This document shows, piece after piece, positions 2,958-40,334 of a stretch of DNA of 41,555 nt. The stretch lies in IMG/VR virus record IMGVR_UViG_2698536372_000033. One strand, written 5' to 3'. Position numbers and translations under genes: made by a program. Position 1 is the first letter of the stretch; each line of letters starts with the position of its first letter. The stretch is from a virus (Duplodnaviria > Heunggongvirae > Uroviricota > Caudoviricetes). The notes beneath the pieces are model-generated. The model did not search any database. It saw nothing but the letters and a program-made list of their open reading frames with translations, and was not told the origin of the DNA.

Positions 2958-2978
2958 AACAATGAACAGAGCATCATC

Positions 2979-3329: not shown

Positions 3330-3339
3330 CAGGTGCTTT

Positions 3340-3618: not shown

Positions 3619-3629
3619 AGGGTGTTGCG

Positions 3630-3982: not shown

Positions 3983-4068
3983 CCGCATAAATAAAACCCC
4001 AGCTTAAATAAAAAAATGTGAACACAATCTGCATTCGCAGAGGTATTCACACACACCAAGGAGGCGTA

Positions 4069-8858: not shown

Positions 8859-8862
8859 ACCA

Positions 8863-22903: not shown

Positions 22904-23426
22904 TTCACTGTTACCACCATCAGCCAGCAGTTTCATGCGTTGTGCCGAAGCTGTCGGAACGCGCATTACAGACATCCCGGTAGACCTCAACACGCTGTGG
23001 TCGCCGGACACCTGCCCGGTGCACCTGCTGCCTTATCTCGCCTGGGCATTTTCCGTTGACCGCTGGGATCGCAACTGGCCGGAAGAGACAAAACGACAGG
23101 TGATTCGTGATGCATGGCTGATACACCGACACAAAGGGACCATCAGCGCACTGCGCAGGGCCATTGAGCCGCTGGGATACCTCATTCGCGTGTCTGAGTG
23201 GTGGGAGTTCGGCGGAGAACCGGGAACATTTACCGTTGAAGTCGGCACACTGGACAGTGGCGTGACGGAGGAAATGTATCTGGAAATGGAGCGGTTGATT
23301 GCTGATGCCCGTCCGGTCAGCCGCCACATGACAGGGCTGAATATCATTCAGGAAATTCCGGGGGATATTTTTGCAGCGGCGGCAACTCATGACGGTGAAG
23401 TTATTACCATTTATCCGGACGATTAA
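22896..23426 (+). CDS. I: Baseplate protein (P2 gpI-like)
   Basis: ATG 22896 overlapping J stop gives 176 aa, the same length as P2 I. Confidence 0.8.
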
Positions 23427-23428
23427 GC

Positions 23429-25561
23429 ATGAGTACCACAACACGAAAATTTAAAACCGTTATCACCGATACAGGTGCCAAAAAATTAGCTCAGGCAGCC
23501 GCGCCAGATGGTAAGCCTGTCCGCCTGACTCATATGGCCGTGGGCGACGGTGGCGGCGCGTTGCCCACACCAGACAGTAAGCAGACCCGTCTGGTGCATG
23601 AGGTGTGGCGACACACTGTTAATCGCGTCATCCTGGACGCAACACATCAGAACCGCATTATTGCGGAGCTGGTTATTCCTCCAGAAACGGGCGGATTCTG
23701 GATCCGGGAAATTGGTGTGTTTGATGAGCACGGCGATTTAATCGCGGTGGGCAATACTGCCGAAAGTTACAAGCCAGCCGTTGCCGAAGGGTCCGGACGT
23801 GCACAAACATTTCGCACCATTCTGACCGTATCCAGCACTGCCACTGTGGCGCTTACCGTGGATAACACCATGGTGATGGCCACAGTGGATTACGTGGATA
23901 ACGAACTGAAAGAGCATGAACAGTCACGATGTCACCCGGATGCCTCGCTGACCGCAAAAGGCTTTGTTCAACTCAGTAGCGCCACTAACAGCGATTCTGA
24001 AACGCTGGCTGCAACGCCGAAAGCGGTTAAGGTCGCGTATGATCTTGCTAACGGAAAATATACAGCGCAGGATGCCACAACAGCGCGAAAAGGCCTTGTC
24101 CAGCTTAGTAGTGCAACCAACAGTACATCTGAAACGCTGGCGGCAACATCAAATGCAGTAAAAGCTGCCTATGACAATGCTGAAAAACGTCTGCAGAAAG
24201 CTAAGAATGGTGAGGATATCTCTGATAAAGACACCTTTACAAAAAATATCGGTGCCTGCCGTGCATATAGTGCAGAGCTGAATATTGGTGGAGATAGTGA
24301 AGCATGGACAACTGCGCAGTTGATTTTTTGGCTAGAGAGTCAGGGGGCATTTAACCATCCTTACTGGATGTGCAAAGGCTCATGGGCTTATGCAAATAAT
24401 AAGGTCATTACAGATACAGGTTGCGGAAGTATTTGTCTTGCAGGTGCTGTTGTGGAAGTTATTGGCACCCGCGGCGCAATGACCATACGCATTACCACAC
24501 CGAGTACATCCAGCGGTGAAGGCATCCCTAATGCTCAATTTACTTATATTAATCATGGTGATGCTTATGCTCCTGGCTGGCGAAGGGACTATAACTCCAG
24601 GAATAAGCCAACAGCATCAGAGATCGGGGCGTTACCGTCAGATGGGACAGCAGTATCGTCAGTTAATCTGGCTTCAAAAGGTCGGCTGACCGCCCTGACA
24701 GATAATATGCAGGGGGCCACAGGTCTGGAGTTATACGAGGCGTATAACAACGGATATCCAACAACGTATGGAAATATCATTCACCTGAAAGGGATGACAG
24801 CCGTTGGCGAAGGCGAATTACTCATCGGCTGGAGTGGTATAAGCGGTGCTCATGCTCCGGCATTTATTCGTTCACGACGGGATACGCCCGACGCAAACTG
24901 GTCGCCGTGGGCGCAGCTTTACACCTCGGCTCATCCTCCTGAAGAGTTTTATCCAGTCGGTGCACCGATTCCGTGGCCATCAGATACCGTTCCGTCTGGT
25001 TATGCCCTGATGCAGGGGCAGACTTTTGACAAATCTGCATACCCGAAACTTGCAGTCGCTTATCCGTCAGGCGTTATTCCTGATATGCGTGGCTGGACGA
25101 TTAAGGGCAAGCCCGGCAGTGGTCGTGCCGTATTGTCTCAGGAACAGGACGGCATTAAATCGCACACCCACAGCGCCAGCGCATCCAGTACGGATTTGGG
25201 GACGAAAACCACATCGTCGTTTGATTACGGTACTAAAACGACCAGTTCATTTGATTACGGCACAAAAACTACGAATAGCGCTGGAAATCATTCACACAAT
25301 ATACCTGTTGGTCACACTGGCGCGGGGAATGGTGTATCAGCCGGTTATAACGCTGCGTTAGGTACTGGTACCACGTCGAGCGCAGGCGAGCATGCTCACA
25401 ATGTATATATCGGTGCCCATAACCACACTATCGGCATTGGTGCTCATGCCCATTCTGTCATTATTGGTCCCCACGGACACACCATCACCGTTAACGCTAC
25501 GGGTAACGAAGAAAACACCGTAAAAAACATCGCATTTAACTATATTGTGAGGCTTGCATAA
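23429..25561 (+). CDS. H: Tail fibre protein (P2 gpH-like) with His-rich C-terminal tip domain
   Basis: 710 aa; N-terminus [20 protein letters not shown]...MAVGDGGG...HEVWRH...[13 protein letters not shown]...AESYKPA.AEGSGR matches P2 H anchor domain; duplicated [21 protein letters not shown] blocks; C-terminal HxH-rich tip. Confidence 0.9.
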
Positions 25562-25902
25562 TGACATTCAGAATGAGTGAACACTCACGGACCATAAAAA
25601 TTTATAATCTACTGACCGGAACCAATGAGTTTATTGGTGAAGGTGATGCATACATTCCACCTCATACAGGTCTGCCTGCAAACAGTACCGATATTGCCCC
25701 GCCAGATATTCCGGCTGGCTTCGTGGCCGTTTTCAACAGTGATGAGGCATCGTGGCATCTCGTTGAAGACCATCGGGGTAAAACGGTTTATGACGTGGCA
25801 TCAGGGGACTCGTTATTTATTTCTGAACTACGGTGCACCGATTCCGTGGCCATCAGATACCGTTCCGTCTGGTTATGCCCTGATGCAGGGGCAGACTTTT
25901 GA
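25561..25902 (+). pseudogene. Truncated tail fibre assembly chaperone (tfa, copy 1) interrupted by a duplication junction
   Basis: First about 90 codons identical to tfa copies 2-4, then reading frame runs into a second copy of the H 3' region at about 25831. Confidence 0.55.
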
Positions 25903-26434
25903 CAAATCTGCATACCCGAAACTTGCAGTCGCTTATCCGTCAGGCGTTATTCCTGATATGCGTGGCTGGACGATTAAGGGCAAGCCCGGCAGTGGTCGTG
26001 CCGTATTGTCTCAGGAACAGGACGGCATTAAATCGCACACCCACAGCGCCAGCGCATCCAGTACGGATTTGGGGACGAAAACCACATCGTCGTTTGATTA
26101 CGGTACTAAAACGACCAGTTCATTTGATTACGGCACAAAAACTACGAATAGCGCTGGAAATCATTCACACAATATACCTGTTGGTCACACTGGCGCGGGG
26201 AATGGTGTATCAGCCGGTTTTAACGCTGCGTTAGGTACTGGTACCACGTCGAGCGCAGGCGGGCATGCTCACAATGTATATATCGGTGCCCATAACCACA
26301 CTATCGGCATTGGTGCTCATGCCCATTCTGTCATTATTGGTCCCCACGGACACACCATCACCGTTAACGCTACGGGTAACGAAGAAAACACCGTAAAAAA
26401 CATCGCATTTAACTATATTGTGAGGCTTGCATAA
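25833..26434 (+). repeat. Duplicate of H C-terminal tip module (about 600 bp, about 99% identical to 24960-25561) with no start codon of its own
   Basis: Nucleotide repeat read directly; encodes [15 protein letters not shown]...NYIVRLA with only two substitutions (Y to F, E to G). Confidence 0.7.
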
Positions 26435-27006
26435 TGACATTCAGAATGAGTGAACAATCACGGACCATAAAAATTTATAATCTACTGGCTGGAACCAATG
26501 AGTTTATTGGTGAAGGTGATGCATACATTCCACCTCATACAGGTCTGCCTGCAAACAGTACCGATATTGCCCCGCCAGATATTCCGGCTGGCTTCGTGGC
26601 CGTTTTCAACAGTGATGAGGCATCGTGGCATCTCGTTGAAGACCATCGGGGAAAAACCGTCTATGACGTGGCTTCCGGCGACGCGTTATTTATTTCTGAA
26701 CTTGGCCCATTACCGGAAAATGTCACCTGGTTATCCCCGGAAGGGGAGTTTCAGAAGTGGAACGGCACAGCCTGGGTGAAAGATGCAGAAGCAGAAAAAC
26801 TGTTCCGGATCCGGAAGGCGGAAGAAACAAAAAACAGCCTGATGCAGATGGCCAGTGAGCATATTGCGCCACTTCAGGATGCCGTAGATTTGGATATTGC
26901 GACGGAGGAAGAGGCATCGTTACTGACTGCATGGAAGACATATCGGGTATTGTTGAATCGTGTTGATACAACAGTAGCATCGGATGTTGAGTGGCCAGAG
27001 TACTAA
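26434..27006 (+). CDS. Tail fibre assembly chaperone (tfa, copy 2, full length)
   Basis: 190 aa; start overlaps tip stop (ATAATG) as for H-G in P2. Confidence 0.75.
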
Positions 27007-27331
27007 AACGACCAGTTCATTTGATTACGGCACAAAAACTACGAATAGCGCTGGAAATCATTCACACAATATACCTGTTGGTCACACTGGCGCGGGGAAT
27101 GGTGTATCAGCCGGTTATAACGCTGCGTTAGGTACTGGTACCACGTCGAGCGCAGGCGAGCATGCTCACAATGTATATATCGGTGCCCATAACCACACTA
27201 TCGGCATTGGTGCTCATGCCCATTCTGTCATTATTGGTCCCCACGGACACACCATCACCGTTAACGCTACGGGTAACGAAGAAAACACCGTAAAAAACAT
27301 CGCATTTAACTATATTGTGAGGCTTGCATAA
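26996..27331 (+). repeat. Third, shorter copy of the H tip module (from AGTACTAAAACGACC onward)
   Basis: Identical to 25237-25561; begins at the same nucleotide as the tip segment fused into gene 30641-32149. Confidence 0.7.
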
Positions 27332-27909
27332 TGACATTCAGAATGAGTGAACACTCACGGACCATAAAAATTTATAATCTACTGACCGGAACCAATGAGT
27401 TTATTGGTGAAGGTGATGCATACATTCCACCTCATACAGGTCTGCCTGCAAACAGTACCGATATTGCCCCGCCAGATATTCCGGCTGGCTTCGTGGCCGT
27501 TTTCAACAGTGATGAGGCATCGTGGAATCTCGTTGAAGACCATCGGGGAAAAACCGTCTATGACGTGGCTTCCGGCGACGCGTTATTTATTTCTGAACTT
27601 GGCCCATTACCGGAAAATGTCACCTGGTTATCCCCGGAAGGGGAGTTTCAGAAGTGGAACGGCACAGCCTGGGTGAAAGATGCAGAAGCAGAAAAACTGT
27701 TCCGGATCCGGAAGGCGGAAGAAACAAAAAACAGCCTGATGCAGATGGCCAGTGAGCATATTGCGCCACTTCAGGATGCCGTAGATTTGGATATTGCGAC
27801 GGAGGAAGAGGCATCGTTACTGACTGCATGGAAGACATATCGGGTATTGTTGAATCGTGTTGATACAACAGTAGCATCGGATGTTGAGTGGCCAGTCGCC
27901 CCGCAATAA
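27331..27909 (+). CDS. Tail fibre assembly chaperone (tfa, copy 3, full length)
   Basis: 192 aa; near-identical to copy 2. Confidence 0.75.
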
Positions 27910-27916
27910 AAGGATA

Positions 27917-27944
27917 AAGCCATCGATAGAAATATTGATGGCTT
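27917..27944. terminator. Bidirectional hairpin between convergent tfa and acetyltransferase
   Basis: AAGCCATC-N12-GATGGCTT inverted repeat. Confidence 0.45.
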
Positions 27945-27952
27945 CATGTACT

Positions 27953-28525
27953 CTATTTATACAATACAACACCGCTCTTTTTTGTTATATATGTGCAGTT
28001 CGATGGTATATCTTTATTTATAAAAGACATTGCACCTATTTTTACATTATCCCCAATTTTACGTGATAATCCAATGATGCAACAATTAGCTCCGATATCA
28101 ACGTTACTACCAATTTTTACTCTTGAACCAGGCATGTCACCATCTACCTGTCCAATGGTAGTATTCTGTCGCAAAACCAGATTTTCACCAGCATCAACAG
28201 CAAAATGAACAACAATTCCAGTATGATGGGGAATTGTTAAACCTTTTCCAATATTTGCGCCCAATCCAATTTCGCAACCAAATCTGTTAATTATATTATT
28301 GTTTAACTTTCTGGCTGCTTTCTTATGTAATTTATTGCCATTAATATACATTTCATTAGCCAGTCTCCACCAGAAAAGGAAATTCCGATTGCGCTGCTTC
28401 TTCTCTCTTAATAGTCGCCAAACATCCATTTTTTCACGCCTGATGATTTCAGCCATCCAATAGCTCAATAGAGCTTTTGAATTCCCGAAGATGACAAAGT
28501 GAATAGCTATTAAGTAACATAACAT
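27953..28525 (-). CDS. Hexapeptide-repeat acyltransferase, serine O-acetyltransferase (CysE)-like, copy 1
   Basis: 190 aa; GANIGKGLTIPHHTGIVVHFAVDAGENLVL...IGSNVDIGANCCIIG...IGDNVKIGAMSFI matches left-handed beta-helix hexapeptide repeats and the CysE-type GxxIxH region; AT-rich. Confidence 0.75.
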   Translation of the reverse strand: MLCYLIAIHFVIFGNSKALLSYWMAEIIRREKMDVWRLLREKKQRNRNFLFWWRLANEMYINGNKLHKKAARKLNNNIINRFGCEIGLGANIGKGLTIPHHTGIVVHFAVDAGENLVLRQNTTIGQVDGDMPGSRVKIGSNVDIGANCCIIGLSRKIGDNVKIGAMSFINKDIPSNCTYITKKSGVVLYK

Positions 28526-28992
28526 ATTGCAACTGCCTATATTTTTGGGTTTCTATGGTTATATATTGACATTATAATTAAAACAATAATCATCAGTGTG
28601 TTACTGCGTTCCTGCTAAACTAAATCAACGCACAATGTAAACACAAATGTTAATTTTAAACTGAGCGCTAAAGGGATGTCAATATTGTATTGATAATGAG
28701 TTGCAAGATTGCCAACACTTTCTATATTTTTGGATGTAATAATTTATATTTTATCTATTTAGTGTTTCTTTAGACTTATTAAGGATGTCATTATTAATTT
28801 ATGGCTTGCCATTTCTATACATATCTGTTAAAAATTTTGACTTGTTTGTTGAAAATAGATTTAATTGATTGGTTTATTTTTTACATGACGCTCTTTAATA
28901 TAGCTTCAGGTATATATAAGCACAATGCATTATTTCCAGAGGAAATTAACAAAATTGTTAGCTCTTATTTGTTGAGCTTATAGATATTAATT

Positions 28993-29012
28993 AAGGCCCG
29001 ATTCCGGGCCTT
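28993..29012. terminator. Hairpin AAGGCCCG-ATTC-CGGGCCTT with flanking T/A runs (bidirectional terminator-like)
   Basis: Read directly; at the end of the 490-bp AT-rich spacer. Confidence 0.45.
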
Positions 29013-29280
29013 TCCTCATTCCGGCTTTTCGGGAAACGTTACTGGAAGGATGGAGGTATCCGTGGATTCGACTTTCTGCGCATAGAGAATCCACTCGGTT
29101 AATTTTTGTTTACCCTGAACGGAAATAATGCCTAGCCGTAACTGTGAGTCCCAGAGCTGAGTTTTATCCCTGACGAGCTGTAGCAGGCTTTGCTTTTCTT
29201 TTTCCGCTTGTTGTCTTTGCATGACCGGTTGAGAAGTTACTTTGCATACCATTACCTCCTGACAACGTAGGAGGGAACTT

Positions 29281-29610
29281 GTGCTTGACACACAGGAATT
29301 AGCTCCAGTTGCTATTGCGCTCCTGCTTTCAGTAATTGGTGGGATAGGCACGTTCCTGATGGATGTCCGAGACGGTCGCCAGTCTGGCAATTTGTTGGGA
29401 TTGGTTACGGAGATCTTTGTTGCAGTGACAGCTGGCGCGGTGGCGTACCTATTGGGGCAACACGAGGGCTGGGAGTTATCAATTACGTACTTAATGGTAA
29501 CGATAGCCAGCAATAACGGTCATGAGGTGATTTCAGGGATGAAACGAGTGAATATCGATAGCATTCTGAATGTTCTTACAAGTTTGGTGAAAAAGGGAGG
29601 TGGGAAATGA
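29281..29610 (+). CDS. Small two-helix membrane protein (holin-like topology), gene 1 of novel operon
   Basis: 109 aa; GTG start 5 nt after TAGGAGGG; hydrophobic helices LAPVAIALLLSVIGGIGTFLM and IFVAVTAGAVAYLLG; basic C-terminal tail. Confidence 0.5.
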   Translation: MLDTQELAPVAIALLLSVIGGIGTFLMDVRDGRQSGNLLGLVTEIFVAVTAGAVAYLLGQHEGWELSITYLMVTIASNNGHEVISGMKRVNIDSILNVLTSLVKKGGGK

Positions 29611-30050
29611 TTGGCTGGGGTGTATGCGCTCTTGCGTTAGCCTTAGCCGATCGCTATTTGCTAAAACGCAAGGACATCACGCATTTAGAACTTGGTGATG
29701 TGGAAATTAAACCGGGTTTCATCCGGGTGCCGTTCAAATACCGGTCTAAATTCCCGTTTTTGCGCGGCGCAACGGTCAGATATTGGATCCGCGATGTTCA
29801 GAAGCCAACGACAGTGATTGAAGGCGAACAACGTTGTCTGACGTCGGCTGAACAGGGCGAAAACAGTGAATGGTTGTACATACCCACTGAATATATGGGT
29901 AAAGGAGAACGGCTGTGGCATTTCAACGTCATGGTTACGCATGGCGACTCGTTCATTAACCCGTTGTATCGGATTTTCCCTGTTACTCAGCAAATCCGCA
30001 GAAGTTACGTAATAAATCTCGCACAGGATGTGTCAGATGACGAAAAATAA
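29607..30050 (+). CDS. N-terminally membrane-anchored protein of unknown function, gene 2 of novel operon
   Basis: 147 aa; start overlaps previous stop (ATGA); N-terminal hydrophobic MIGWGVCALALALA. Confidence 0.5.
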   Translation: MIGWGVCALALALADRYLLKRKDITHLELGDVEIKPGFIRVPFKYRSKFPFLRGATVRYWIRDVQKPTTVIEGEQRCLTSAEQGENSEWLYIPTEYMGKGERLWHFNVMVTHGDSFINPLYRIFPVTQQIRRSYVINLAQDVSDDEK

Positions 30051-30639
30051 GTATGCAACGGTCGATTTTGACCAGGTTAATGAAAAGGGGCTGAAATCCC
30101 TTATCGCGGCGATCAATAAAACCGGTGTTACGGTAATTGAGGTTGACTCCAGCAACCGCGCAACAACGAAAGATGGCGTTAAAGTTAAAACCGCAAAGCT
30201 GGTTCTTAACGACGGACAAATTCTTGCCATACAGGTAAACGATACTGGCGATATATCGTCTGTGAGGCTGAATGGAAAAGCTATTCCTAACGCTCAGTCG
30301 CCGGATATCAAGACGCTTGGTACCGTCATGGGGCAAGCGGCCCGCAAAAACTCCGCAAAATTCCAGAAATCACTGATCGCCAAAGCGAAACGTGTTGCCA
30401 ATCCGGTAGACAAGAAACCGGCAGTAAAATCCAACTTTCAGCGCCTGCAAGAGGCAAAACAGCGGAATGCTCAGGTGGTTGCCGCTTATAAATCAGCGCA
30501 GAACTCGGTGTCTTTCAATCAACAGCAGATCACTGATTTGCGGGCGAAGCTGGATAAGGAGACAGGCCGACTCAATAACGAAAAGGCCCGAAATGGCGAA
30601 CTCAAACGCCGTCTTAAGCAACTGAAAGCAGGAAATTAA
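30028..30639 (+). CDS. Coiled-coil protein of unknown function, gene 3 of novel operon
   Basis: 203 aa; overlaps gene 2 by 23 nt; contains motif KNSAKFQ then basic/coiled-coil tail; a 23-nt stretch is near-identical to one in gene 4. Confidence 0.5.
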
Positions 30640-30640
30640 C

Positions 30641-32149
30641 ATGGAACAGTTCAATATCAATAAAGGGGTGACGATCAAGCCTGGGCTTGACGTGCTTCCC
30701 CCGCCAGTGACTGATGATGAATATCGCGCATTAATGGCCGGTGAGGACCGCTATCTGATGACGGAATCCAACACCCTGGAGGAAATCGAGGCTACGTTCT
30801 TCTATGACACGCCGATCCACTGGTGTGCTACGGATTTACTGGAGGCGATTAGTTCTACTCGTTTGCAGCTACACCGGACCATGCAGGCATTTGTCCGGGC
30901 ATTGAACCAGAAGCTGAATGGTACCGGAATCTCTGCGGGGAGTGATAAAACGGGGGACGTGGCCCAGAACGGTGCACGCGCGATCGGCGGGGCTGAAATT
31001 GGCCGGGCACGTAACGTTAACGGGCTGCCGGTCCTGCCAGCCATTATTCCGCTCAGTGATGGTCAGACTATCAGCATTCTGTTTCATAGCCCGACAGCGG
31101 AAAACCGGATCACCAATAGCGATACGCTGATTGCTTTCCAGTTCTTACTGAATAAAAAAGACGTTACTCATACCGTTGCTCCGATGAGTGGACGTGATAT
31201 GACGCTGGCGCAGGTCACCATGAAACTTGCCAACCTTGCAGAGAAAAACTCGGCAAAATTCCAGCGTGCGCAGAAGAAGAAAAAAGCCCTGGTTGATGAA
31301 ATAACCCAACTACAGGCTGACAGTGACCAGAAAGAGGATGCCATGAGCGACCTCGCGGATCAGGTGGCAGCGGTAGAAGGGCAGAAGGTAGATCTGGAGC
31401 AGAAAATTAACGCTGTTGCATCGGAAGCGGATTCTCTTTATGAAGAGAATGAGCGTTTGCAGACGGAGATTGATCAGCTCAATCGAACTGGTGGGCGCGA
31501 AACCATTGCTCCTGCGGGGATGACTGGTAGACACTCTCGCGCGATGACGGATCGCCTTGCAAGTATCAAAAATCGTATGCATATGAACGGGGAAGTGACG
31601 CTCAGTAATGGTGCATCAATGAAGCAATTCATTGAGGACGGTGAAGGGTATATCCAGTTAACCGATTCGGATGGCAGCGTGTACATGATCAAGGCTAAAT
31701 CCATACAGGGTGTGGACATGGCAGATGCGATCGGCAAGCTGTTTAAAGCCTATAAAGCGGGTAATGTATCGGAATATCTGGTCCAACCAGAAGAACATAA
31801 ACCGGAAAACGTCGAAAGTACTAAAACGACCAGTTCATTTGATTACGGCACAAAAACTACGAATAGCGCTGGAAATCATTCACACAATATACCTGTTGGT
31901 CACACTGGCGCGGGGAATGGTGTATCAGCCGGTTATAACGCTGCGTTAGGTACTGGTACCACGTCGAGCGCAGGCGAGCATGCTCACAATGTATATATCG
32001 GTGCCCATAACCACACTATCGGCATTGGTGCTCATGCCCATTCTGTCATTATTGGTCCCCACGGACACACCATCACCGTTAACGCTACGGGTAACGAAGA
32101 AAACACCGTAAAAAACATCGCATTTAACTATATTGTGAGGCTTGCATAA
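30641..32149 (+). CDS. Chimeric protein: novel 390-aa N-terminal region (with coiled-coil) fused to the tail-fibre His-rich tip module, gene 4 of novel operon
   Basis: 502 aa; start 2 nt after gene 3 stop; last 115 aa ([10 protein letters not shown]...NYIVRLA) identical to the H tip from the AGTACTAAAACG breakpoint; followed by a tfa copy. Confidence 0.6.
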
Positions 32150-32728
32150 TGACATTCAGAATGAGTGAACACTCACGGACCATAAAAATTTATAATCTAC
32201 TGACCGGAACCAATGAGTTTATTGGTGAAGGTGATGCATACATTCCACCTCATACAGGTCTGCCTGCAAACAGTACCGATATTGCCCCGCCAGATATTCC
32301 GGCTGGCTTCGTGGCCGTTTTCAACAGTGATGAGGCATCGTGGCATCTCGTTGAAGACCATCGGGGTAAAACGGTTTATGACGTGGCATCAGGGGACTCG
32401 TTATTTATTTCTGAACTCGGTCCATTACCGGAAAATGTTACCTGGTTGTCGCCGTATGGAGAGTATCAGAAGTGGAACGGCACATCCTGGGTGAAAGATG
32501 CAGAAGCAGAAAAACTGTTTCGGATAAGGGAGGCGGAAGAAACAAAAAAACAGCCTGATGCAGGTAGCCAGCGAGCATATTGCGCCACTTCAGGATGCCG
32601 TAGATTTGGATATTGCAACGGAGGAAGAGGCATCGTTACTGGCTGCATGGAAGACATACCGGGTATTGTTGAATCGTGTTAATACAGCGGTAGCAGCGGA
32701 TGTTGAGTGGCCAGTCGCCCCACAATAA
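32149..32728 (+). pseudogene. Tail fibre assembly chaperone (tfa, copy 4) with +1 frameshift in an A7 run
   Basis: A7 at about 32550-32556 versus A6 in copies 2 and 3; ORF terminates early at 32682 while the shifted frame continues to the normal stop at 32726-32728. Confidence 0.55.
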
Positions 32729-32734
32729 AGAGAA

Positions 32735-32764
32735 AAAGCCATCGATTGAAATATAGATGGCTTT
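32735..32764. terminator. Bidirectional hairpin between convergent tfa copy 4 and acetyltransferase copy 2
   Basis: AAAGCCATC-N12-GATGGCTTT inverted repeat, paralogous to 27917-27944. Confidence 0.45.
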
Positions 32765-32771
32765 ATGTACT

Positions 32772-33377
32772 CTATTTATACAATACAACACCGCTCTTTT
32801 TAGTTATATATGTGCAGTTCGATGGTATATCTTTATTTATAAAAGACATTGCACCTATTTTTACATTATCCCCAATTTTACGTGATAATCCAATGATGCA
32901 ACAATTAGCTCCGATATCAACGTTACTACCAATTTTTACTCTTGAACCAGGCATGTCACCATCTATCTGTCCAATGGTAGTATTCTGTCGTAACACCAGA
33001 TTTTCACCAGCATCAACAGCAAAATGAACAACAATTCCAGCATGATGGGGAATTGTTAACCCTTTTCCAATATTTGCGCCCAATCCAATTTCACAACCAA
33101 ATTTGTTAATTATTTTACTGTTTAACTTTTTGGCTGCTTTCTTATGTAATTTATTACCATTAATATACATTTCGTTAGCCAACCGCCACCAGAAAAGGAA
33201 ATTCCGGTTACGCTGTTTTTTCTCTCTTAAAAGCCTCCAGATATCCATACGTTTCCGCCGAATTACTTCATATTTCCAGAAGTTTTTTAAATTAGTAGAG
33301 TCCCCAAATAAAACAAAGTGAATTGCCATTAAGTAAGACAGCACGATAATCTCCTTAATTATTATTTCAGACCACAC
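32772..33377 (-). CDS. Hexapeptide-repeat acyltransferase, serine O-acetyltransferase (CysE)-like, copy 2
   Basis: 201 aa; same architecture as copy 1 but clearly diverged in sequence (many substitutions), unlike the near-identical fibre-tip copies. Confidence 0.75.
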   Translation of the reverse strand: MWSEIIIKEIIVLSYLMAIHFVLFGDSTNLKNFWKYEVIRRKRMDIWRLLREKKQRNRNFLFWWRLANEMYINGNKLHKKAAKKLNSKIINKFGCEIGLGANIGKGLTIPHHAGIVVHFAVDAGENLVLRQNTTIGQIDGDMPGSRVKIGSNVDIGANCCIIGLSRKIGDNVKIGAMSFINKDIPSNCTYITKKSGVVLYK

Positions 33378-33500
33378 ATATTATAAGGTTAAGAGATTAT
33401 AAAATCCTGTTGTTTGTTATTCAAAAACAATTTTCTGAGAAGGACATACAACAGCAAGTCGCCAGTCACCTTCATCAGGAAATTGGCGACATACGTTAAA

Positions 33501-33995
33501 TCAGAGCAGCCCCTTAACTGAGCTGGTCGCGCTATTAAGGGATGATGTCACCTTATCTTTGAAGCCGGACAACATATCGCTGAACGATGAGGATTGCAGG
33601 CGCTCCCGCAAATCCTCATCACAGCGTTCAAGAGTCAGTGAAAATTCTATCTTTTTCGACTTACCGTAGCGATCAAACTCGGAGCGGGTCGTATTCGTTT
33701 CGGTCAGGACATACATGCCGTAAATCTGCCCGACGCCATCAATCAGAGGCCAGGGCCGTCCTGTATACGCCTGCGTGGTCAGCAGAGACAGCGACACTTC
33801 GCCACCTGTAATTTCAGGATAAAGCACACCAGAAAGAACGATGCGATCATCACCTGCACCGATATACTGCCAGCTTGCTGAACGGTTAACGCGTTCATTT
33901 TTCACATGCCGCCAGCTTTTGTTTTGCTGTAACTGCTGATGCGGCAGCGTGCGCAGCTCAAAAACAAACATGCCATAGATCATCATCATGGCCAT
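33501..33995 (-). CDS. U: Tail protein (P2 gpU-like)
   Basis: 164 aa (P2 U 159 aa); immediately downstream of tape measure gene on the minus strand. Confidence 0.8.
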   Translation of the reverse strand: MAMMMIYGMFVFELRTLPHQQLQQNKSWRHVKNERVNRSASWQYIGAGDDRIVLSGVLYPEITGGEVSLSLLTTQAYTGRPWPLIDGVGQIYGMYVLTETNTTRSEFDRYGKSKKIEFSLTLERCDEDLRERLQSSSFSDMLSGFKDKVTSSLNSATSSVKGLL

Positions 33996-34001
33996 GACTC
34001 C

Positions 34002-36845
34002 TCAATCTTTATCGTAAAAACTGCCACGCCCGGCACGGGCGCGCCGTTCCATTTCTGCCCTGACCATTTCACCGACCAGTTTCGCCAGTTCGCGGGGATT
34101 CTGCGTAACAACGTTATGCAGATGAACATGAATTTCACCGCCAAATCTGGAGACAGCAGGCTCCCGATTACGGGAAGCTGCAGGAACTGATGCCACTGGC
34201 GATCGTATGGCCTCCGCCACCGGGCGGGAGCTGGCCGCAACAACAGGGACCAGCGCCGGAGGCAGCGGAGCCGGGACTACGGGTGTGATATTAATTGCGG
34301 GGGCAGGCTTACTGACCTGCGCAATCTTCCGCTCCTGCCACTCCCCACGAACAGCAAGTGCGCGGGGCAGGTTCTTAAAGACAATATCGCCAGGGCCAAT
34401 GCGTTTTTTCGTCTCATCAACCAGCTTACCTGTGTTATCAGCAATTTTGCTGAGTCTGCGTAGCGTCCCGGTATTGCTGTCTGTGAGCGGTTTGTTGTCT
34501 TTGGGTTTATCACCTCCGGTGCCATTGCCATTTTCCACAGGCTTCGGCGGATTGATTTTCGCCAGGTCCCCCTGAAGTAAGGCAACCTTATCCTGAAGAA
34601 TGGCCGCACGCTGTGCGTCTTCGATTTTCTTGCGCGCCCTTTCCGCTTCATCCGGAAGGACGCCAAGTTTTTCAAGTATCCACGCCAGCGTATCCAGTAG
34701 CATTTTTGCAGGTGTCAGAACAAGTTGTAACGCACCGCCAAGAACGTTACCGAATATCTCGCCAGCACTGGTACATTTATCCAACGTTTCCTTGCTGGAC
34801 TCCATCGGTGACAGCAGCGATTTAAACCAGTTAAACACCTGGCTGATCCCGCTTCCGATTGCGTCAAAAACAGGGCCAAACCGTTCAAAGGTTTCACGCA
34901 ACGGGTTCAGCCTTTCCATAATCCCGCTGAACACCCCGGCAAAAAATGCCCTGATGGGATCCCAGTATTTCCAGATAAGGACGGCAGCTCCGGCAAGCGC
35001 AGCCACGATAAGACCAACCGGACTGAACAGCGCCCCGATAGCGCCTCCCAGTAAAGAAACGGAACCCGTCACCATTCCCCATAGTGCTGGCAGGACCCTG
35101 ACAGCATTCATTGATCCGGTCAGGAGAGAAAAACCAAGACGCAGTTTTGCCAGCGGACCAGCAAGCACACCAATAGCCAGCGACAACGAGCCAACCGTTG
35201 CAGTCATTGCCAGCAACGCACCGCCTGCTATCAGTAGCTGGCGCGTCAGTGCCGGATGGGCCTGCGCCAGCGCCGTCACCCTTGATACCACCCGCGTGAG
35301 CCACTGCGTGACAGAACGCAGCGGACCGTCAATCAGATCTGCAATGCGGATGCGCAACCCTTCCCATGCACTGCCGAGTGATTTCAGATCGCCGTCAAGG
35401 TTGTTGGCCATAACCTTTGCTGTGCGTTCAGCCTCACCGCGCGCGCCTTCAAGTTCTTTTCTCAGTTTGGGTAAGGAACCGTCACCCACTGCATCAACGA
35501 GCGCCATAAACGATGTGAAAGCCTCTTCTCCGGCAATGTCCTTAAAGAACGATACCCGGTCAACTTCCCCGTATTTGCGGGTGGCTTTATAAAGGTCGGC
35601 CAGCACATCCTCCATCGGGCGCATTTTACCCCCGGCATCCGAGACGGACACGCCCAGCTCTTTCAGAGCTTCTGCCGCCGCCTTTGGCGGTGATGCCAGA
35701 CGAGCCAGGCTGGCACGCATTGCCGTCCCGGCATCACTCCCTCTGATGCCCATATTCGCCAGCACACCAGCCATCGCTGCGGCCTGCTCCAGCGATATTC
35801 CCAGCTTACCCGCCACCGGACCTGCATATTTCATGGTTTCGCCCAGTGCGCGAAGGTCAGTGTTGGTACGGGTAAACGCTGCGGTGAGTGTGTCACCGAC
35901 CCGGTCCATCTGGTCAGCAGAAAGGCCGAACTGCGTCAGGATATTTGAGCCAATATCTGCCGTCTCGCCGAGATCCATACCGCCAGCCGTTGCCATGCTC
36001 AGCACTCCGGGAAGCGCAGCCTGAATGGCCTGCGGTGTGAAGCCTGCCATTGCAAGAAATGCCTGCCCACTGGCGGCATCGCCTGCGGTGAACTGCGTTT
36101 CAGAGCCAAGTTTTAACGCCTGCTCACGCAGCGCCTTAAACTGCGGGCTGTTCTGGTCGATTCGCGTCAGCGCCTGAACGCGGGACATCTCTTTGCCGAA
36201 CCCGATCGCGGGCTGCAAAAAACGCCCGGCAGCATAGCCGCCCGCCGCTGCCGCACCAATTGCCAGCGCACCACCTGTTTTCAGTTTTCCCGCGGTTTCC
36301 TGCGCGCGCGAATACCACTTACGCGCCCGCGTTACACGCGCAAGCGCCTGCCGTTCGCGTTCAAGCTGGTTGTTGTACTGTTCGGTGCGTCTGATGGCCT
36401 GCTGGATGGTGTTATCGCTGCCTGTCAGGGAAATGCCGTGGCGTTTCAGCTCTCCGCCAAGCTCCCGCATTTTCTGAATTTCCCGTGTGCGCGATTCATT
36501 CAGGCGTTCAAGCCGGGTGCTTAACTGCTGCATCAGCTTTTGTTGTTTTTCGCTGAGCACTGTACCCGTGCGTTGTAACTGATTAAGGGCGTTAAGCTGG
36601 CGTCGTGCTTTCACGATACCCGCATCCGCTTTACTGACAGCGTCGCGGGCGCGCTCAAATGAACGAGCCTGACGCTCGAGATTTTTAATCGCCCCCTGCG
36701 TTCGCTGGATGGAGTCACCAAACTGCCCCATCAGGCGGCGGGCGTTTTCGGCAGGCCGGGTCAGCCTGTCAACGGCGCTGAAAGCGACCCGGATATCAAG
36801 AGTCTTCATTGTCTGCATTCCCGCTGCGAAGTGCCGCCCGCTCAC
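34002..36845 (-). CDS. T: Tail tape measure protein (P2 gpT-like)
   Basis: 947 aa; long helical N-terminal half, Gly/Ala-rich hydrophobic central segments; follows E/E'. Confidence 0.85.
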   Translation of the reverse strand: MSGRHFAAGMQTMKTLDIRVAFSAVDRLTRPAENARRLMGQFGDSIQRTQGAIKNLERQARSFERARDAVSKADAGIVKARRQLNALNQLQRTGTVLSEKQQKLMQQLSTRLERLNESRTREIQKMRELGGELKRHGISLTGSDNTIQQAIRRTEQYNNQLERERQALARVTRARKWYSRAQETAGKLKTGGALAIGAAAAGGYAAGRFLQPAIGFGKEMSRVQALTRIDQNSPQFKALREQALKLGSETQFTAGDAASGQAFLAMAGFTPQAIQAALPGVLSMATAGGMDLGETADIGSNILTQFGLSADQMDRVGDTLTAAFTRTNTDLRALGETMKYAGPVAGKLGISLEQAAAMAGVLANMGIRGSDAGTAMRASLARLASPPKAAAEALKELGVSVSDAGGKMRPMEDVLADLYKATRKYGEVDRVSFFKDIAGEEAFTSFMALVDAVGDGSLPKLRKELEGARGEAERTAKVMANNLDGDLKSLGSAWEGLRIRIADLIDGPLRSVTQWLTRVVSRVTALAQAHPALTRQLLIAGGALLAMTATVGSLSLAIGVLAGPLAKLRLGFSLLTGSMNAVRVLPALWGMVTGSVSLLGGAIGALFSPVGLIVAALAGAAVLIWKYWDPIRAFFAGVFSGIMERLNPLRETFERFGPVFDAIGSGISQVFNWFKSLLSPMESSKETLDKCTSAGEIFGNVLGGALQLVLTPAKMLLDTLAWILEKLGVLPDEAERARKKIEDAQRAAILQDKVALLQGDLAKINPPKPVENGNGTGGDKPKDNKPLTDSNTGTLRRLSKIADNTGKLVDETKKRIGPGDIVFKNLPRALAVRGEWQERKIAQVSKPAPAINITPVVPAPLPPALVPVVAASSRPVAEAIRSPVASVPAASRNREPAVSRFGGEIHVHLHNVVTQNPRELAKLVGEMVRAEMERRARAGRGSFYDKD

Positions 36846-37325
36846 GCCAGCTAACCACTTCGCCGGGCGTCATCATGAAGATTTCGGCGGGCGACCAGTT
36901 AAAAATAACGGCAATATCTGCCACAAAGTCTTCTATGTGCTCAAAGCACACAACCGTGATCAGGCTTCCGTCGCCTGTTCGTTCTTCCCGCCAGAGTCCG
37001 CACCGCTCAAAAAATTTACGGCAACCACACATAACTGAATAAAGTCACGGGATGCCATTTTTTTGATCGTCACTTCATCCAGTCGCGGTGATGTCACGCG
37101 TGACAGCAGCGTAAACATGGATTCCGCTTTCAGATTCAGCACATCAGACAGCGACAAATCTCGCAGAGATCCAGCCTGCTCAATAGCCCCGGTGATCTCC
37201 ACATACGTGATTTTTTCGCCGCCTCGCTCAATTGGTTGGGTAAGTTTTACACCACGCTCACTGGTTTCTTTCACAGTGTCAGCAACTACCGTGTTTTCGG
37301 TATCGATGTTTTTCGTCTCTTTCAT
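36796..37325 (-). CDS. E: Tail assembly chaperones E and E' (E' made by programmed -1 frameshift)
   Basis: E ORF 36960-37325; slippery heptamer T-TTT-TTG on minus strand (plus coords 37008-37014) links to the -1 frame ORF ending at 36796. Confidence 0.8.
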
Positions 37326-37379
37326 CAGGAAACTCCTTTCAGTCAGAGGCGACGCACTGCGCCGCCTGCATATTACTTA

Positions 37380-37892
37380 TCAGCCAAGCCCGAGCGCGGA
37401 ACGGATGCGATCGGGCACAATGTCCTTGCCGTCCTTCCGGTAAATGAAGTTCAGCAGGTCAATCTCCCACAACGGGCGATCGTTAACACTCAGCTTGTAG
37501 TAGGTGTTTTTAATGGCGTAAGTGTGTGATGTGGCTTCGCCCTGTTTGGCTTCCCCCATATCAATTTCCGTCACACGTCCGCGCATTTCGACTTCATACA
37601 GGTCGCTTTCTGCATCGGTGTAATATTCACCCGCAAAACGCAGCAGCGTGCCGTCAATCGTGCCGCCATACTTAAGGAACAGCTCACGAACTGCGCCCCC
37701 CATGACAAAGCTCGCATCAAGCGCGGAGTCGTCCAGACCGAGATCAATACTTACCGCACCCATCATGCCACCACCCCGGTAGCTGTCGGTTTTGCGCGTC
37801 AGCTTAGGCAGAGTGACGGACGTCACCTTACCCACTTCGTTTTCACCATCCACAAACAGCGTAAAAAAGCGAAGATGTTTTGGTACAGCCAT
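37380..37892 (-). CDS. FII: Tail tube protein (P2 gpFII-like)
   Basis: 170 aa (P2 FII 172 aa); synteny downstream of sheath. Confidence 0.85.
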   Translation of the reverse strand: MAVPKHLRFFTLFVDGENEVGKVTSVTLPKLTRKTDSYRGGGMMGAVSIDLGLDDSALDASFVMGGAVRELFLKYGGTIDGTLLRFAGEYYTDAESDLYEVEMRGRVTEIDMGEAKQGEATSHTYAIKNTYYKLSVNDRPLWEIDLLNFIYRKDGKDIVPDRIRSALGLG

Positions 37893-39076
37893 CAGGCACC
37901 TCCCAGCACCGCAAATGCGGGTTCAAAGTATTCATCAGTAAACGTCTGGTAAAGCTCCATGTCTTCCAGTGGCGGAACGGGCGTATATTTGTAGCGAATA
38001 CGCACACGCCCCTGACGTAAATCCGTGGTGCTGTTATCCACCACGTCATACCAGCACTCCGCGCCAATCAGTTTCCCGGCAGTAACCAGCGAATCCAGTT
38101 TTGCCCTGATGGCACTGATAACATCCTTCACGTTCGCAGGCGTCAGTGGACTGTCGATGGTTTCAAACTGCGCTTCCGCAATTGAATCAGCCAGCACCTG
38201 TGCGGTTCGGGTATACACCTCAAAGATGTAGGCGTTCGTTTCCGGTGTGCGGTTGCCCCAGAAGCGGAACCCGTTGCGACGAATAATGGTCGTGATTTCT
38301 TTGTTGTTGAGGCTGTTGGCATCACTGTCTTCGGCCTGCAACGACCAGAAAACATGCCTGGACATCCCCAGCACATTTTTAACAGGAACGTTGGACAGCG
38401 ATTTGTGCCAGCCCTGCTCATGGTCAATGTACGCACGAAGGCCGCACGCATAGGCAGGCGCGGGGAACGTTTCGTTTTTGCCACTTTTCGGGTTGTAGGC
38501 GATGAAGTCCGGCCATAAGAGCATCACCTCACGTTCGTTGAATTTCTGGCGGTAGGTAATTGCCTCAGCCATCGTGTTACAGTCATGACATGAGGCATAC
38601 ACAAACGCGCGCAGTTTACCCGCAATCACGCACAGGGATTTTGTCACCGCCTCCGTGTCCAGCTCCGGCGCGGCCAGAATACGCGGACGGTATCCGATGC
38701 TTTCATCCTGCTCTGCAACAAGCAGCGCATACATCCCCGTATAGCTGCCGTCAGATTCAGAACCACCGATAACCAGTTGATCCTGCGTCTTACCGCCTTC
38801 TTCTTTGTGTTCAGCCACGCGAACGACGATCACTTTTGTGCTCACCTGGTCTGCAATAGCCTTAAGCGCACGATAAAGCGTCCCCGTAGTCCCGCATTTT
38901 CCCAGCACGTCATTGACGCGGGTCAGCAGTGTGGGCTTGTTCAGCGGGAACAGCTCCGCGTCCGCATCATCCGCCGTTGCCACGATACCGATAACACTGG
39001 AATCAACATCATTAATCGCTGTTACCAGGTCGGTACTTTCCGTAACACGGGCACCATGAAAACGAGTTTCACTCAT
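37892..39076 (-). CDS. FI: Contractile tail sheath protein (P2 gpFI-like)
   Basis: 394 aa; FPLNKP, LRAF.Y, QGWHKTLSNV, RRNGFRFWGNRT, YTRTAQV, YTPVPPLE blocks match recalled P2 FI. Confidence 0.9.
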   Translation of the reverse strand: MSETRFHGARVTESTDLVTAINDVDSSVIGIVATADDADAELFPLNKPTLLTRVNDVLGKCGTTGTLYRALKAIADQVSTKVIVVRVAEHKEEGGKTQDQLVIGGSESDGSYTGMYALLVAEQDESIGYRPRILAAPELDTEAVTKSLCVIAGKLRAFVYASCHDCNTMAEAITYRQKFNEREVMLLWPDFIAYNPKSGKNETFPAPAYACGLRAYIDHEQGWHKSLSNVPVKNVLGMSRHVFWSLQAEDSDANSLNNKEITTIIRRNGFRFWGNRTPETNAYIFEVYTRTAQVLADSIAEAQFETIDSPLTPANVKDVISAIRAKLDSLVTAGKLIGAECWYDVVDNSTTDLRQGRVRIRYKYTPVPPLEDMELYQTFTDEYFEPAFAVLGGA

Positions 39077-39233
39077 AGCTTCAGCCCCTTGTATCCGTTA
39101 AATGATTCGGCAACAATCATCACCCACCACGCGCGTAATCTCACCCCTGCGCCGTTCTCCCGCCACGGCGACAACAAAAAGCAGTAACCCCCTATGCACG
39201 CACATGCGACCATGCCGCACAGGGAGGGAACAG
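39077..39233. promoter_or_regulatory. Divergent intergenic region between inverted sheath operon and gene D (must contain promoters for both)
   Basis: Inferred from gene orientation only. Confidence 0.35.
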
Positions 39234-40334
39234 ATGACCGATACCACCATGCAATTGCTCAGTCAGAGCACAGACCCCGTGAAAATGCCGGATTTTGATA
39301 TTCTCGCGGAGGGGGAAACACTGTCCGGCGTGGCAGAGCGCCTGATGAGCCTGTCACTGACCGACAACCGGGGATTTGAAGCGGACCTGCTCACCATCAC
39401 GCTGGATGATGCGGATGGTCAGTTGCAGCTACCGCCACGGGGCGCGCGCCTGACGGTTCTCATTGGCTGGAAAGGAGAACCGCTGACAGAAAAAGGCACT
39501 TACATTGTTGATGAAATCGCTCACGAAGGACCGCCGGACAGGCTGACTGTTTCAGCCAGAAGCGCAGATTTTCGGGATGAATTTAACGTTAAACGTGAGG
39601 TGTCCTGGCATGATGTGACCGTTGAGCGCGTGGTATCCGCCATCGCTCATCGGTACGGTCTGAAACCACAAATCAGCGAAATGCTGATGGATATTGAAAT
39701 CGACCACGCCGACCAGACCGAAGAAAGCGACATGTCCTTCCTTACGCGCATGGCGGAAATGCTGGGCGCAATCACTACGGTAAAAAGCAGTAATCTGTTA
39801 TTCATCATGCCAGGCGGTGGCGTGAACGCACAGGGCCAGCCGTTGCCATCGTTCGCCATCACGCGCAGCAGTGGCGATCGCCATCAGTTCCGCATTGCTG
39901 ACCGCGAAGCGTATACGGGGGTACGTGCTTACTGGCTTGATCTTAATTACGGGAAAAAGAAAAAAGTCAGCGTGAAACGCCGCAAACCGAAAAAGGAGAA
40001 AAGCAGCAGCCGTGAAGGTGACTATATGGAAGGTGCGGAAGGCAACGTGTTTGTGTTACGCAAGACTTATCAGAACGAGCAGGCAGCAAGACGTGCAGCG
40101 GCGGCAAAGTGGCAGCAGCTACAACGCGGAGCCGCATCATTCTCCATCACGCTGGCGCGTGGACGCGCAGAACTCTATCCCGAAATGCATGGCACGGTGA
40201 CAGGCTTCAAAAGTGACATCGATAATCAGGACTGGATTATTGCAAAAGCCGAGCACACCATTGATAACAGCGGCTTTACCACACAGCTTGAGCTTGAAGC
40301 AAAAATCCCGGAATGGATAGCAGAAACAGAATGA
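39234..40334 (+). CDS. D: Tail protein D (P2 gpD-like)
   Basis: ATG 39234 after AGGGAGGG; 366 aa (P2 D 387 aa); position at the right end of the tail cluster. Confidence 0.8.
   Translation: MTDTTMQLLSQSTDPVKMPDFDILAEGETLSGVAERLMSLSLTDNRGFEADLLTITLDDADGQLQLPPRGARLTVLIGWKGEPLTEKGTYIVDEIAHEGPPDRLTVSARSADFRDEFNVKREVSWHDVTVERVVSAIAHRYGLKPQISEMLMDIEIDHADQTEESDMSFLTRMAEMLGAITTVKSSNLLFIMPGGGVNAQGQPLPSFAITRSSGDRHQFRIADREAYTGVRAYWLDLNYGKKKKVSVKRRKPKKEKSSSREGDYMEGAEGNVFVLRKTYQNEQAARRAAAAKWQQLQRGAASFSITLARGRAELYPEMHGTVTGFKSDIDNQDWIIAKAEHTIDNSGFTTQLELEAKIPEWIAETE

Follow-up and report, generated by a model that had tools for sequence, protein, structure and literature searches.

CysE-like acetyltransferase genes convergent on tail-fibre chaperone genes in a P2-like prophage: two alleles of two phages

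Introduction

Why should a temperate phage carry, next to its tail-fibre genes, a gene that databases call a serine acetyltransferase? The question is raised by a P2-like prophage (IMG/VR record IMGVR_UViG_2698536372_000033), the whole analysed stretch of which, 41,555 nucleotides (nt) in length, is referred to here as the window. It contains two acetyltransferase (AT) genes, AT1 and AT2, each convergent on a copy of the tail-fibre chaperone gene tfa, which is preceded by a fragment of the fibre-tip gene (tip). Such genes already bear the annotation 'serine acetyltransferase' and have been mentioned in passing as cargo whose role is unknown, and literature searches for a characterised function gave only mentions of this kind. 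Phage-borne acetyltransferase morons beside receptor-binding protein (RBP) genes are likewise known as a class. The present analysis adds evidence that the proteins are not CysE, the origin of the two alleles in two phages, their mosaic ancestry under purifying selection, and the depth of the tip–tfa–AT synteny.

Protein family and active site

In agreement with an initial annotation of the window, both genes encode CysE-like hexapeptide acyltransferases with a predicted left-handed β-helix (LbH) and a length of about 190–200 amino acids (aa). AT1 comprises 190 aa, while AT2 has 201 aa, or 190 aa from position 33344, where its RefSeq orthologue starts. The Pfam model Hexapep scores 24.5 bits, slightly below its gathering score of 27. 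Among the NCBIfam models, EpsC ranks before CysE and CysE before WcaB, all far above LacA, NeuD, MAT and WbbJ, and no cut-off is reached. Specifically, AT1 and AT2 score 76.2 and 75.2 bits with EpsC (NF041874, cut-off 150), 64.5 and 61.5 bits with CysE (TIGR01172, cut-off 210.65), 41.4 and 36.7 bits with the second CysE model (PRK11132, cut-off 397), and 53.9 and 54.7 bits with WcaB (cut-offs 194.65 for TIGR04016 and 196 for PRK10191). In PHROGs, both proteins fall into phrog_2154, a family with no function assigned (E = 2e-83 and 2e-87, profile positions 3–181 of 185).

An AlphaFold2 model based on 61 homologues has a mean predicted local distance difference test (pLDDT) of 95.5 and consists of five N-terminal helices (residues 2–82) followed by the LbH. 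The long open reading frame (ORF) is supported, since its first 32 residues form part of the modelled fold. The top PDB matches obtained with Foldseek are all serine acetyltransferases (SATs), with a template modelling (TM) score of about 0.7, 20–30% identity and a probability of 1.0.

The active site was read from a HMMER alignment to Yersinia CysE, in which CysE Asp92 could not be placed, and from an alignment of the 61 homologues. The catalytic residue His100, corresponding to CysE His158, is conserved in 60 of the 61 homologues, and the acidic residue 85 (CysE Asp143) is Asp or Glu in all of them. In published SAT structures, ʟ-serine and cysteine are bound by Asp157, Arg192 and His193 of CysE (E. 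coli numbering). The position of Asp157 is occupied by Pro in AT1 and AT2 and by Asp in none of the 61 homologues, and His193 has no counterpart in the alignments to Yersinia CysE and among the homologues. An equivalent of Arg192 is present in 15 of the 61 homologues, and AT1 and AT2 have an Arg there. Furthermore, the protein ends about 10 residues past the last LbH turn and the C-terminal tail of CysE is missing; its 190 aa compare with 232–309 target residues aligned in the SAT chains found by Foldseek. An invariant WWR and the sequence QNxTIG are motifs of the AT family.

The initial annotation had proposed an inspection of the substrate-pocket residues and had named clustering with housekeeping CysE as a refutation. 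The former shows a retained catalytic pair in a changed pocket, and the latter is not seen. It is concluded, from alignments and model together, that AT is probably an acetyl-CoA-dependent transferase with the CysE fold and another acceptor pocket, and not the housekeeping CysE. The best explanation of the protein is a predicted soluble, trimeric-type LbH O-acetyltransferase belonging to a short CysE/WcaB/EpsC-like branch. AT1 and AT2 have no match to PF01757 (Acyl_transf_3), and the model shows a globular helical domain plus LbH. A search of PADLOC-DB 2.0 returned no defence family for the AT proteins at E ≤ 0.1, and a known anti-phage defence system was dropped as a candidate.

Linkage to receptor-binding modules

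The linkage to receptor-binding modules asserted by the initial annotation is real and runs deep. A convergent tfa-like ORF lies 19–90 nt downstream of AT in 70 of 80 IMG/VR loci, and in 63 of the 69 loci with more than 700 nt of flank. These pairs include ones that have diverged to 42–66% identity in AT and 34–54% in tfa relative to the window copies. The same HxH-rich tip family is present in 60 of the 80 loci. More distant homologues, 43% identical in Citrobacter phage phiNP and 35% identical in Hafnia phage yong2, are convergent on tfa as well. In one exceptional IMG/VR locus (L096, UViG_2654587985_000006), a 54%-identical AT at positions 2977–3537 is flanked by genes for a tail-collar fibre and its DUF4376 chaperone, both on the AT strand, and by a convergent gene for a P22-type tailspike with Head_binding and pectate-lyase-like parts. 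Thus, the RBP linkage reaches past tfa-type chaperones. AT is shown to be physically tied to receptor-binding modules and to be a conserved accessory gene.

Among 5426 complete E. coli genomes, 530 (about 10%) carry the gene, at 533 chromosomal and 66 plasmid sites, and alleles at least 97% identical are found in O157 (O157:H7), O26, O111, O104 (O104:H4) and O22 (O22:H8) strains. The prophages of O157:H7 and O104:H4 show the same convergent tfa–AT order. The prophage of O104:H4 that carries AT is intact, and in O157:H7 AT is retained beside tfa in a degraded P2 remnant devoid of tail fibres.

In P2-like phages, moron position 2, the Z/fun slot, has been defined previously (PMC3573123). AT has the features of a moron at this hotspot, namely a location between tfa (G) and the tail-sheath operon, an orientation opposite to G, and an atypical G+C content. 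Both AT genes have 35% G+C compared with 51% for the window, with dips to 32% around AT1. Beyond the convergent tfa–AT pair, on the side of AT, the genes U, T, E, FII and FI lie on the AT strand in the window and in the O26, O157 and O104 prophages. This FI-FII-E-T-U operon (within 33501–40334) is inverted relative to classical P2, and D lies on the plus strand, divergent from FI. The inverted layout is also found in O26, and its AT-U-T-E part, which was examined in the O157:H7 and O104:H4 prophages as well, is present there too. Because the tail operon is inverted, AT is located at the meeting point of two converging late operons.

In the P1-like phage JL22, AT goes by the name 'sacF' and stands in the C segment inverted by Cin, with tfa on one side and the alternative U' on the other. 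In JL22 (L003), inverted repeats of 602 nt (3402–4003 and 8264–8865, 99% complementary) enclose a unique part of 4260 nt that holds Sv', U', AT, tfa and Sv, with AT co-oriented with the alternative Sv'-U' set. AT lies between the inverted repeats and therefore flips with the C segment.

Two alleles from two phages

The origin of the two units was mapped by blastn against two annotated references, the chromosome of E. coli O26:H11 11368 and the P1-like phage-plasmid pO26_98E11_1. The matching blocks are listed in Table 1. Unit 1 is plasmid-type and unit 2 chromosome-type, which rules out a duplication within one phage. Each reference replicon contains exactly one convergent tfa–AT pair, in the order H, tfa, AT (WP_000954196.1), U and T on the chromosome, and S, tfa, AT (WP_001369353.1), U' remnant and lydA on the plasmid. 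For this reason, AT1 and AT2 are alleles of different phages, specifically of two co-resident phages of O26:H11-type strains, a P1-like phage-plasmid and a P2-like prophage. In the window, a plasmid fragment of 4.8 kb is embedded in the prophage, hence the two alleles lie 4.8 kb apart.

A comparison of the units reveals their mosaic nature. The AT1 and AT2 proteins align end to end without gaps with 88% identity (168 of 190 residues). The initial annotation had described a shared GIVVHFAVDAGENLVLRQNTTIGQ core with differences at many positions: the core is indeed common to both proteins, but the differences are not spread throughout, as 16 of the 22 lie within residues 1–35, 21 within residues 1–102 and a single one beyond. 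In windows of 100 nt, the AT genes agree completely over their last 100 nt, and identity then falls to 97, 95, 90, 63 and 50% towards the 5' end and the promoter. The adjacent tip and tfa copies had been called near-identical, which holds for tip and the first ~170 nt of tfa (100%) but not for the remainder of tfa and the hairpin (90–94%), where divergence is like that in the middle of AT. With the frameshift of copy 4 corrected, the Tfa proteins of copies 3 and 4 differ at 11 of 192 positions. As had been noted initially, each AT gene faces its tfa across a hairpin, which lies in a 43-nt spacer. The two spacers are 95% identical and fold as a hairpin of 9–12 bp (plus-strand z = -4.3; none of 200 shuffles folds as well), with a U-rich tract after the stem on the minus strand.

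Nei–Gojobori estimates for AT1 versus AT2 give a ratio of nonsynonymous to synonymous divergence (dN/dS) of 0.19 over all codons and of 0.09–0.19 in the parts where dS is unsaturated. Codons 96–190 have a dS of 0.048, i.e., recent common ancestry, and codons 46–95 a dS of 0.35. In codons 1–45, synonymous sites are saturated (proportion of synonymous differences, pS, 0.86), while the nonsynonymous proportion, pN, is just 0.21. The genes are under purifying selection acting on a recombinant mosaic. Diversifying selection, one of two suggestions made in the initial annotation, is ruled out by these ratios. The other suggestion, that the acetyltransferases are paralogues uniformly older than tip and tfa, fails for alleles of two phages; on the sequence divergence, 'older' would fit only the 5' third of the gene.

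It is proposed that P1-like and P2-like phages have swapped the tip–tfa–AT block by homologous recombination, which would produce the mosaic identity of the two units. At informative sites, copies 2 and 3 change from chromosome-type to plasmid-type at different points, as expected from homologous exchange inside a shared block.

Junctions and the presence of two units in one phage

Three junctions in the window, at 25830, 26999 (J2) and 31817 (J3), link non-homologous sequence. The first joins nt 272 of tfa to the start of tip, J2 joins the 3' end of tfa to tip, and J3 joins darA to tip. J2 and J3 have their right breakpoint in common and also an untemplated extra A (AGTACTAAAACG), giving a ScaI-like AGTACT. 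They could be scars of illegitimate recombination or assembly artefacts. A Cin/cix-like site at the shared breakpoint was sought by eye, and no convincing match to hix, gix or cix half-sites emerged. Across J3, the plus strand contains an ORF of 502 aa (30641–32149), in which the first ~392 residues of DarA are in frame with the last 110 residues of the tip. The region 25561–27331 contains extra partial units: a tfa cut at nt 272, ~600 nt of tip, a tfa that stops 14 nt short of its end, and 332 nt of tip.

The co-occurrence of both units in one phage may be an artefact of assembly or chimeric reads, or a one-off rearrangement in a single isolate, and the chance of this is put only a little short of even. 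Besides the non-homologous junctions with their repeated breakpoint and extra A, it is favoured by the failure to find the junctions elsewhere: exact scans of IMG/VR gave no match to J2 or J3, exact scans of GTDB representatives and JGI metagenomes gave none to J3, and BLAST across J3 in the 5426 complete E. coli genomes gave no spanning match. The exact DarA'-tip fusion protein has no record in an index of 153 billion genes, and the closest genomes hold the two units on separate replicons. A nearby homopolymer frameshift (A6 to A7) also hints at error-prone sequencing; this A7 run in tfa copy 4 could be a slipped-strand mutation or a homopolymer sequencing error. Against an artefact, a graph assembler would have needed shared k-mers for these joins, which the junctions do not have, and the points of change from chromosome-type to plasmid-type differ between copies, as in real plasmid–chromosome recombination (1.4 kb shared, 95–100% identity). 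A cointegrate followed by a deletion would account for J3, but not for the extra partial copies. The doubt about the arrangement touches only the claim of two copies in one phage, and not the nature of the AT genes.

Possible roles of AT

AT is proposed to acetylate an envelope glycan tied to the receptor of the adjacent fibre and thereby to act in lysogenic conversion or superinfection exclusion, a role for which the chances are seen as evenly balanced. The gene is low-G+C accessory cargo (a 'moron') and sits directly behind the tail-fibre chaperone gene, in a slot that corresponds to the Z/fun hotspot in P2-like phages and to the middle of the Cin-invertible C segment in P1-like phage-plasmids. 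It appears to have its own predicted promoter and to share a putative bidirectional terminator with tfa. The enzyme would acetylate a sugar acceptor during the cytoplasmic assembly of an envelope glycan, and fibres of the linked type would then meet an altered surface. Since a soluble LbH enzyme reaches glycans only during cytoplasmic assembly, and since strains of several O serogroups share one allele, the probable acceptor is an envelope precursor common to these serogroups, e.g., the lipopolysaccharide (LPS) core, enterobacterial common antigen (ECA) or another precursor linked to undecaprenyl diphosphate (Und-PP). Seroconversion or superinfection exclusion, already suggested by the initial annotation, is a reasonable reading, and conversion or exclusion is proposed here by analogy with NeuO (PMC3046976), NeaT in the same slot and receptor-blocking genes beside RBP genes. 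The analysis establishes what the proteins are, their modelled fold, the catalytic residues that they keep, their place in the genomes, their origin and the mode of selection; the acceptor, expression in the lysogen and an effect on adsorption are what we infer.

Several points weigh against this proposal. The sigma-70 promoter calls are consensus matches, of which 18 were found versus 14.4 expected. AT2 is co-oriented with the tail operon 124 nt upstream, and late read-through instead of expression in the lysogen is possible. The receptor of the linked fibre could be a protein. A homologue in Streptococcus thermophilus 987-group phages (31% identity), located between an RBP gene and the holin gene, is an apparent late gene. 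No homologue lies in a polysaccharide gene cluster among six genomic contexts examined. Some homologues are found away from RBPs, in integrase islands, on an enteropathogenic E. coli adherence factor (EAF)-type plasmid and at a prophage end, and one IMG/VR locus, an N15-like element (L091), is an exception in having no RBP nearby. The authors of the JL22 study stated that the reason for the gene's presence was unknown (PMC9603915).

The main rival to glycan acetylation is that AT is generic fitness, virulence or defence cargo with an unrelated substrate, which hitch-hikes with tip–tfa swaps because the fibre operon ends at a permissive recombination site, be it the Z/fun hotspot or the end of the prophage. 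This is considered possible, if on the unlikely side. The slot is already known as a mixed-purpose hotspot for defence genes, toxins and RBP swaps (bioRxiv 10.1101/2024.10.15.618418; PMC3573123), and cargo character is further suggested by the homologues near integrases, on the EAF-type plasmid and in the N15-like element, as well as by phiNP, where AT comes after dinI and hicAB cargo on the same strand. However, mere hitch-hiking sits poorly with a convergent AT–tfa pairing, at a gap of 19–90 nt, that persists to about 40% identity of both partners and spans P2-like, P1-like and other backbones. Moreover, AT recurs beside other RBP types, and the lack of a PADLOC match speaks against a defence role.

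A more elaborate version of glycan acetylation is offered tentatively and judged somewhat unlikely. Here, tip, chaperone and a matching receptor-modifying acetyltransferase would form a co-inherited 'bind-and-mask' cassette that behaves as one recombination unit, and AT would acetylate a serogroup-independent glycan (LPS core, ECA) that is the receptor of the tip family. Such a cassette would move between unrelated temperate phages, including P2-like prophages, P1-like phage-plasmids (in the Cin-invertible segment) and others.

It is very unlikely that AT serves the virion, being expressed late and either acetylating the fibre or its chaperone or altering the surface of the dying cell against re-adsorption of progeny to debris. 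AT2 does follow FI-FII-E-T-U in the same orientation with only a weak terminator-like site in the 124 nt after U, the JL22 gene is co-oriented with the alternative Sv'-U' set, and the 987-group homologue lies on the late strand. Nevertheless, AT is kept in the O157:H7 remnant that has lost its tail fibres, many P2-like and P1-like phages with related fibres do without it, and the genes have promoter-like sites of their own and an A+T-rich, foreign composition. To our knowledge, acetylation of a fibre protein by an LbH enzyme has no precedent.

Finally, a true serine O-acetyltransferase that boosts cysteine synthesis as an auxiliary metabolic gene, as implied by the RefSeq name 'serine (O-)acetyltransferase', the CysE-type nearest structures and sequences, the retained His/acidic pair and the Arg aligned with CysE Arg192 in AT1 and AT2, is very improbable given TIGR01172 and PRK11132 scores far below cut-off, a replaced Asp157, a missing His193, an Arg192 equivalent in only 15 of 61 homologues, and a short 190-aa protein without the C-terminal regulatory tail.

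Features of the window

The features discussed above and their neighbours are collected in Table 1. The space between the hairpin of the U' remnant (about 28990–29015) and AT1 is a very A+T-rich spacer of ~490 nt (28526–29015), which contains a strong promoter-like site and a 60-aa plus-strand ORF (28801–28983) of unclear meaning. Two further genes are likely cargo, both named after the O26 annotation: one at 18082–19959, encoding a 625-aa DUF6645 protein, stands between the lysis genes and those of the tail, and the other, a member of the YecA family at 40734–41555, lies between D and ogr.

Table 1. Coordinates, strands and reference matches of features in the window; promoters, terminators and enzyme assignments are predictions.
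Feature	Position	Strand	Description
Tail-fibre gene H	23429–25561		710 aa; tip/tfa repeats, some partial and some complete, come after it
Tip fragment before tfa copy 3	27000–27330	plus	last 110 codons, HxH-rich; begins at J2
tfa copy 3	27331–27909	plus	intact, 192 aa; convergent on AT1; 5' end chromosome-type, plasmid-type from about 27526 on
Hairpin between tfa copy 3 and AT1	27917–27944		12-bp stem, GAAA loop, U-rich tract after it on the minus strand; putative bidirectional terminator
AT1	27953–28525	minus	190 aa from ATG; putative LbH acetyltransferase, P1-like phage-plasmid allele; 99.7% nt identity to pO26_98E11_1, RefSeq WP_001369353.1 'serine acetyltransferase'
Sigma-70-like promoter of AT1	28653–28682	minus	TTGACA-18-TAAAAT, 11/12; ~130 nt upstream; predicted
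U' remnant	29016–29252	minus	alternative tfa of P1-type invertible C segment; upstream of AT1 on the same strand; GC-rich hairpin after it
lydA, lydB, hdf, 5' 1176 nt of darA	29281–31816	plus	P1-like, plasmid-derived; separates the two tip–tfa–AT units
Tip fragment before tfa copy 4	31818–32148	plus	identical to the first; in-frame fusion to truncated darA at J3
tfa copy 4	32149–32728	plus	convergent on AT2; frameshifted by an extra A in 32538–32544 (A7 versus A6 of the O26 reference), ORF as read stops at 32682
Homologous hairpin between tfa copy 4 and AT2	32735–32764		9-bp stem
AT2	32772–33377	minus	201 aa from GTG at 33377; chromosomal P2-like prophage allele; 99.9% nt identity to O26:H11 11368, WP_000954196.1 'serine O-acetyltransferase'
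Sigma-70-like promoter of AT2	33396–33424	minus	TTGAAT-17-TATAAT, 10/12; just upstream; predicted
Tail gene U	33501–33995	minus	P2 gpU-like; ends the inverted FI-FII-E-T-U operon; AT2 follows 124 nt downstream, same strand
Tail gene T	34002–36845	minus	followed by E, FII and FI
Block	23000–25834		O26:H11 11368 chromosome, 99.9%; H and start of tfa
Block	25831–26998		pO26_98E11_1, 99.4%; tip and tfa
Block	27000–31816		pO26_98E11_1, 99.7%; tip, tfa, AT1, U' remnant, lydA, lydB, hdf, first 1176 nt of darA
Block	31818–34500		O26:H11 chromosome, 99.9%; tip, tfa, AT2, U

Significance

Should AT indeed modify the glycan that the linked fibre uses as receptor, a gene of lysogenic conversion that alters the cell surface would have gone unrecognised in about 10% of complete E. 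coli genomes, and the carriers would include the main enterohaemorrhagic E. coli (EHEC) lineages O157, O26, O111 and O104. Phage susceptibility, the host range available to phage therapy, serology and possibly the interaction with the host could be affected by such a gene. The 'serine acetyltransferase' label, which databases pass on from one to another, would also be corrected. A simple, testable handle on the role of AT is offered by the conserved tip–tfa–AT synteny. Furthermore, the unusual insertion of a P1 fragment in a P2-like prophage, if real, would document that a phage-plasmid and an integrated prophage exchange DNA directly, by way of fibre modules common to both.

Comparison with known systems

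Among solved proteins, CysE (TIGR01172/PRK11132; PDB 1T3D, 3GVD and 7RA4) is the best match to AT in both sequence and structure. The two share an N-terminal helical domain followed by an LbH (TM about 0.7) and the His/acidic pair. AT, in contrast, is without Asp157, His193 and the C-terminal tail, and reaches about one third of the family cut-off or less. CysE is a core gene, whereas AT is mobile low-G+C cargo.

WcaB and EpsC (TIGR04016, NF041874) are similar to AT in size and architecture, and AT presumably shares with them a cytoplasmic sugar acceptor. They are encoded in exopolysaccharide loci, while AT is found in fibre regions of prophages and not in wca, and the WWR and QNxTIG motifs are particular to the AT family.

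NeuO of prophage CUS-3 is a prophage-encoded LbH O-acetyltransferase of polysialic acid (PMC3046976). AT resembles it in being prophage-encoded and, by prediction, a soluble LbH O-acetyltransferase, and NeuO modifies a surface polysaccharide. The 32 PDB sequence matches of AT at E ≤ 1e-3 include no chain of a polysialate O-acetyltransferase, which places AT in another LbH branch. The host strains of AT are not K1. Phase-variable tandem repeats are absent from both AT genes and from the sequence upstream of them, so that phase variation of the NeuO kind is ruled out.

NeaT, encoded by phi-b0847, a P2-like prophage of strain CFT073, is a predicted acyltransferase with a cell surface effect and a demonstrated role in systemic virulence (PMC3573123). 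Like AT, its gene occupies moron position 2, flanked by the chaperone gene G, which runs in the opposite direction, and by the tail genes, and its G+C content of about 30% is unameliorated, as AT is likewise low in G+C. NeaT is, however, an integral-membrane Acyl_transf_3 protein (PF01757) with a fold unrelated to that of AT. Acetyltransferases are also frequent in Klebsiella prophages (PMC13123978).

Accessory genes directly after the fibre or RBP module are also known from Z/fun of P2, llp of T5 and cor of phi80 and N15. As proposed for AT, llp and cor would mask the class of receptor to which the linked RBP binds, although the proteins are unrelated. Llp and Cor directly block the protein receptor FhuA, with no enzymatic modification of a glycan. 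Oac of Sf6 and its relatives are seroconverting O-acetylases of temperate phages, and an alteration of the receptor glycan is likewise proposed for AT. They are membrane proteins of the AT3 type that operate at the periplasmic side or at the membrane and are usually encoded near int/att, whereas AT is a predicted soluble LbH enzyme encoded beside tfa.

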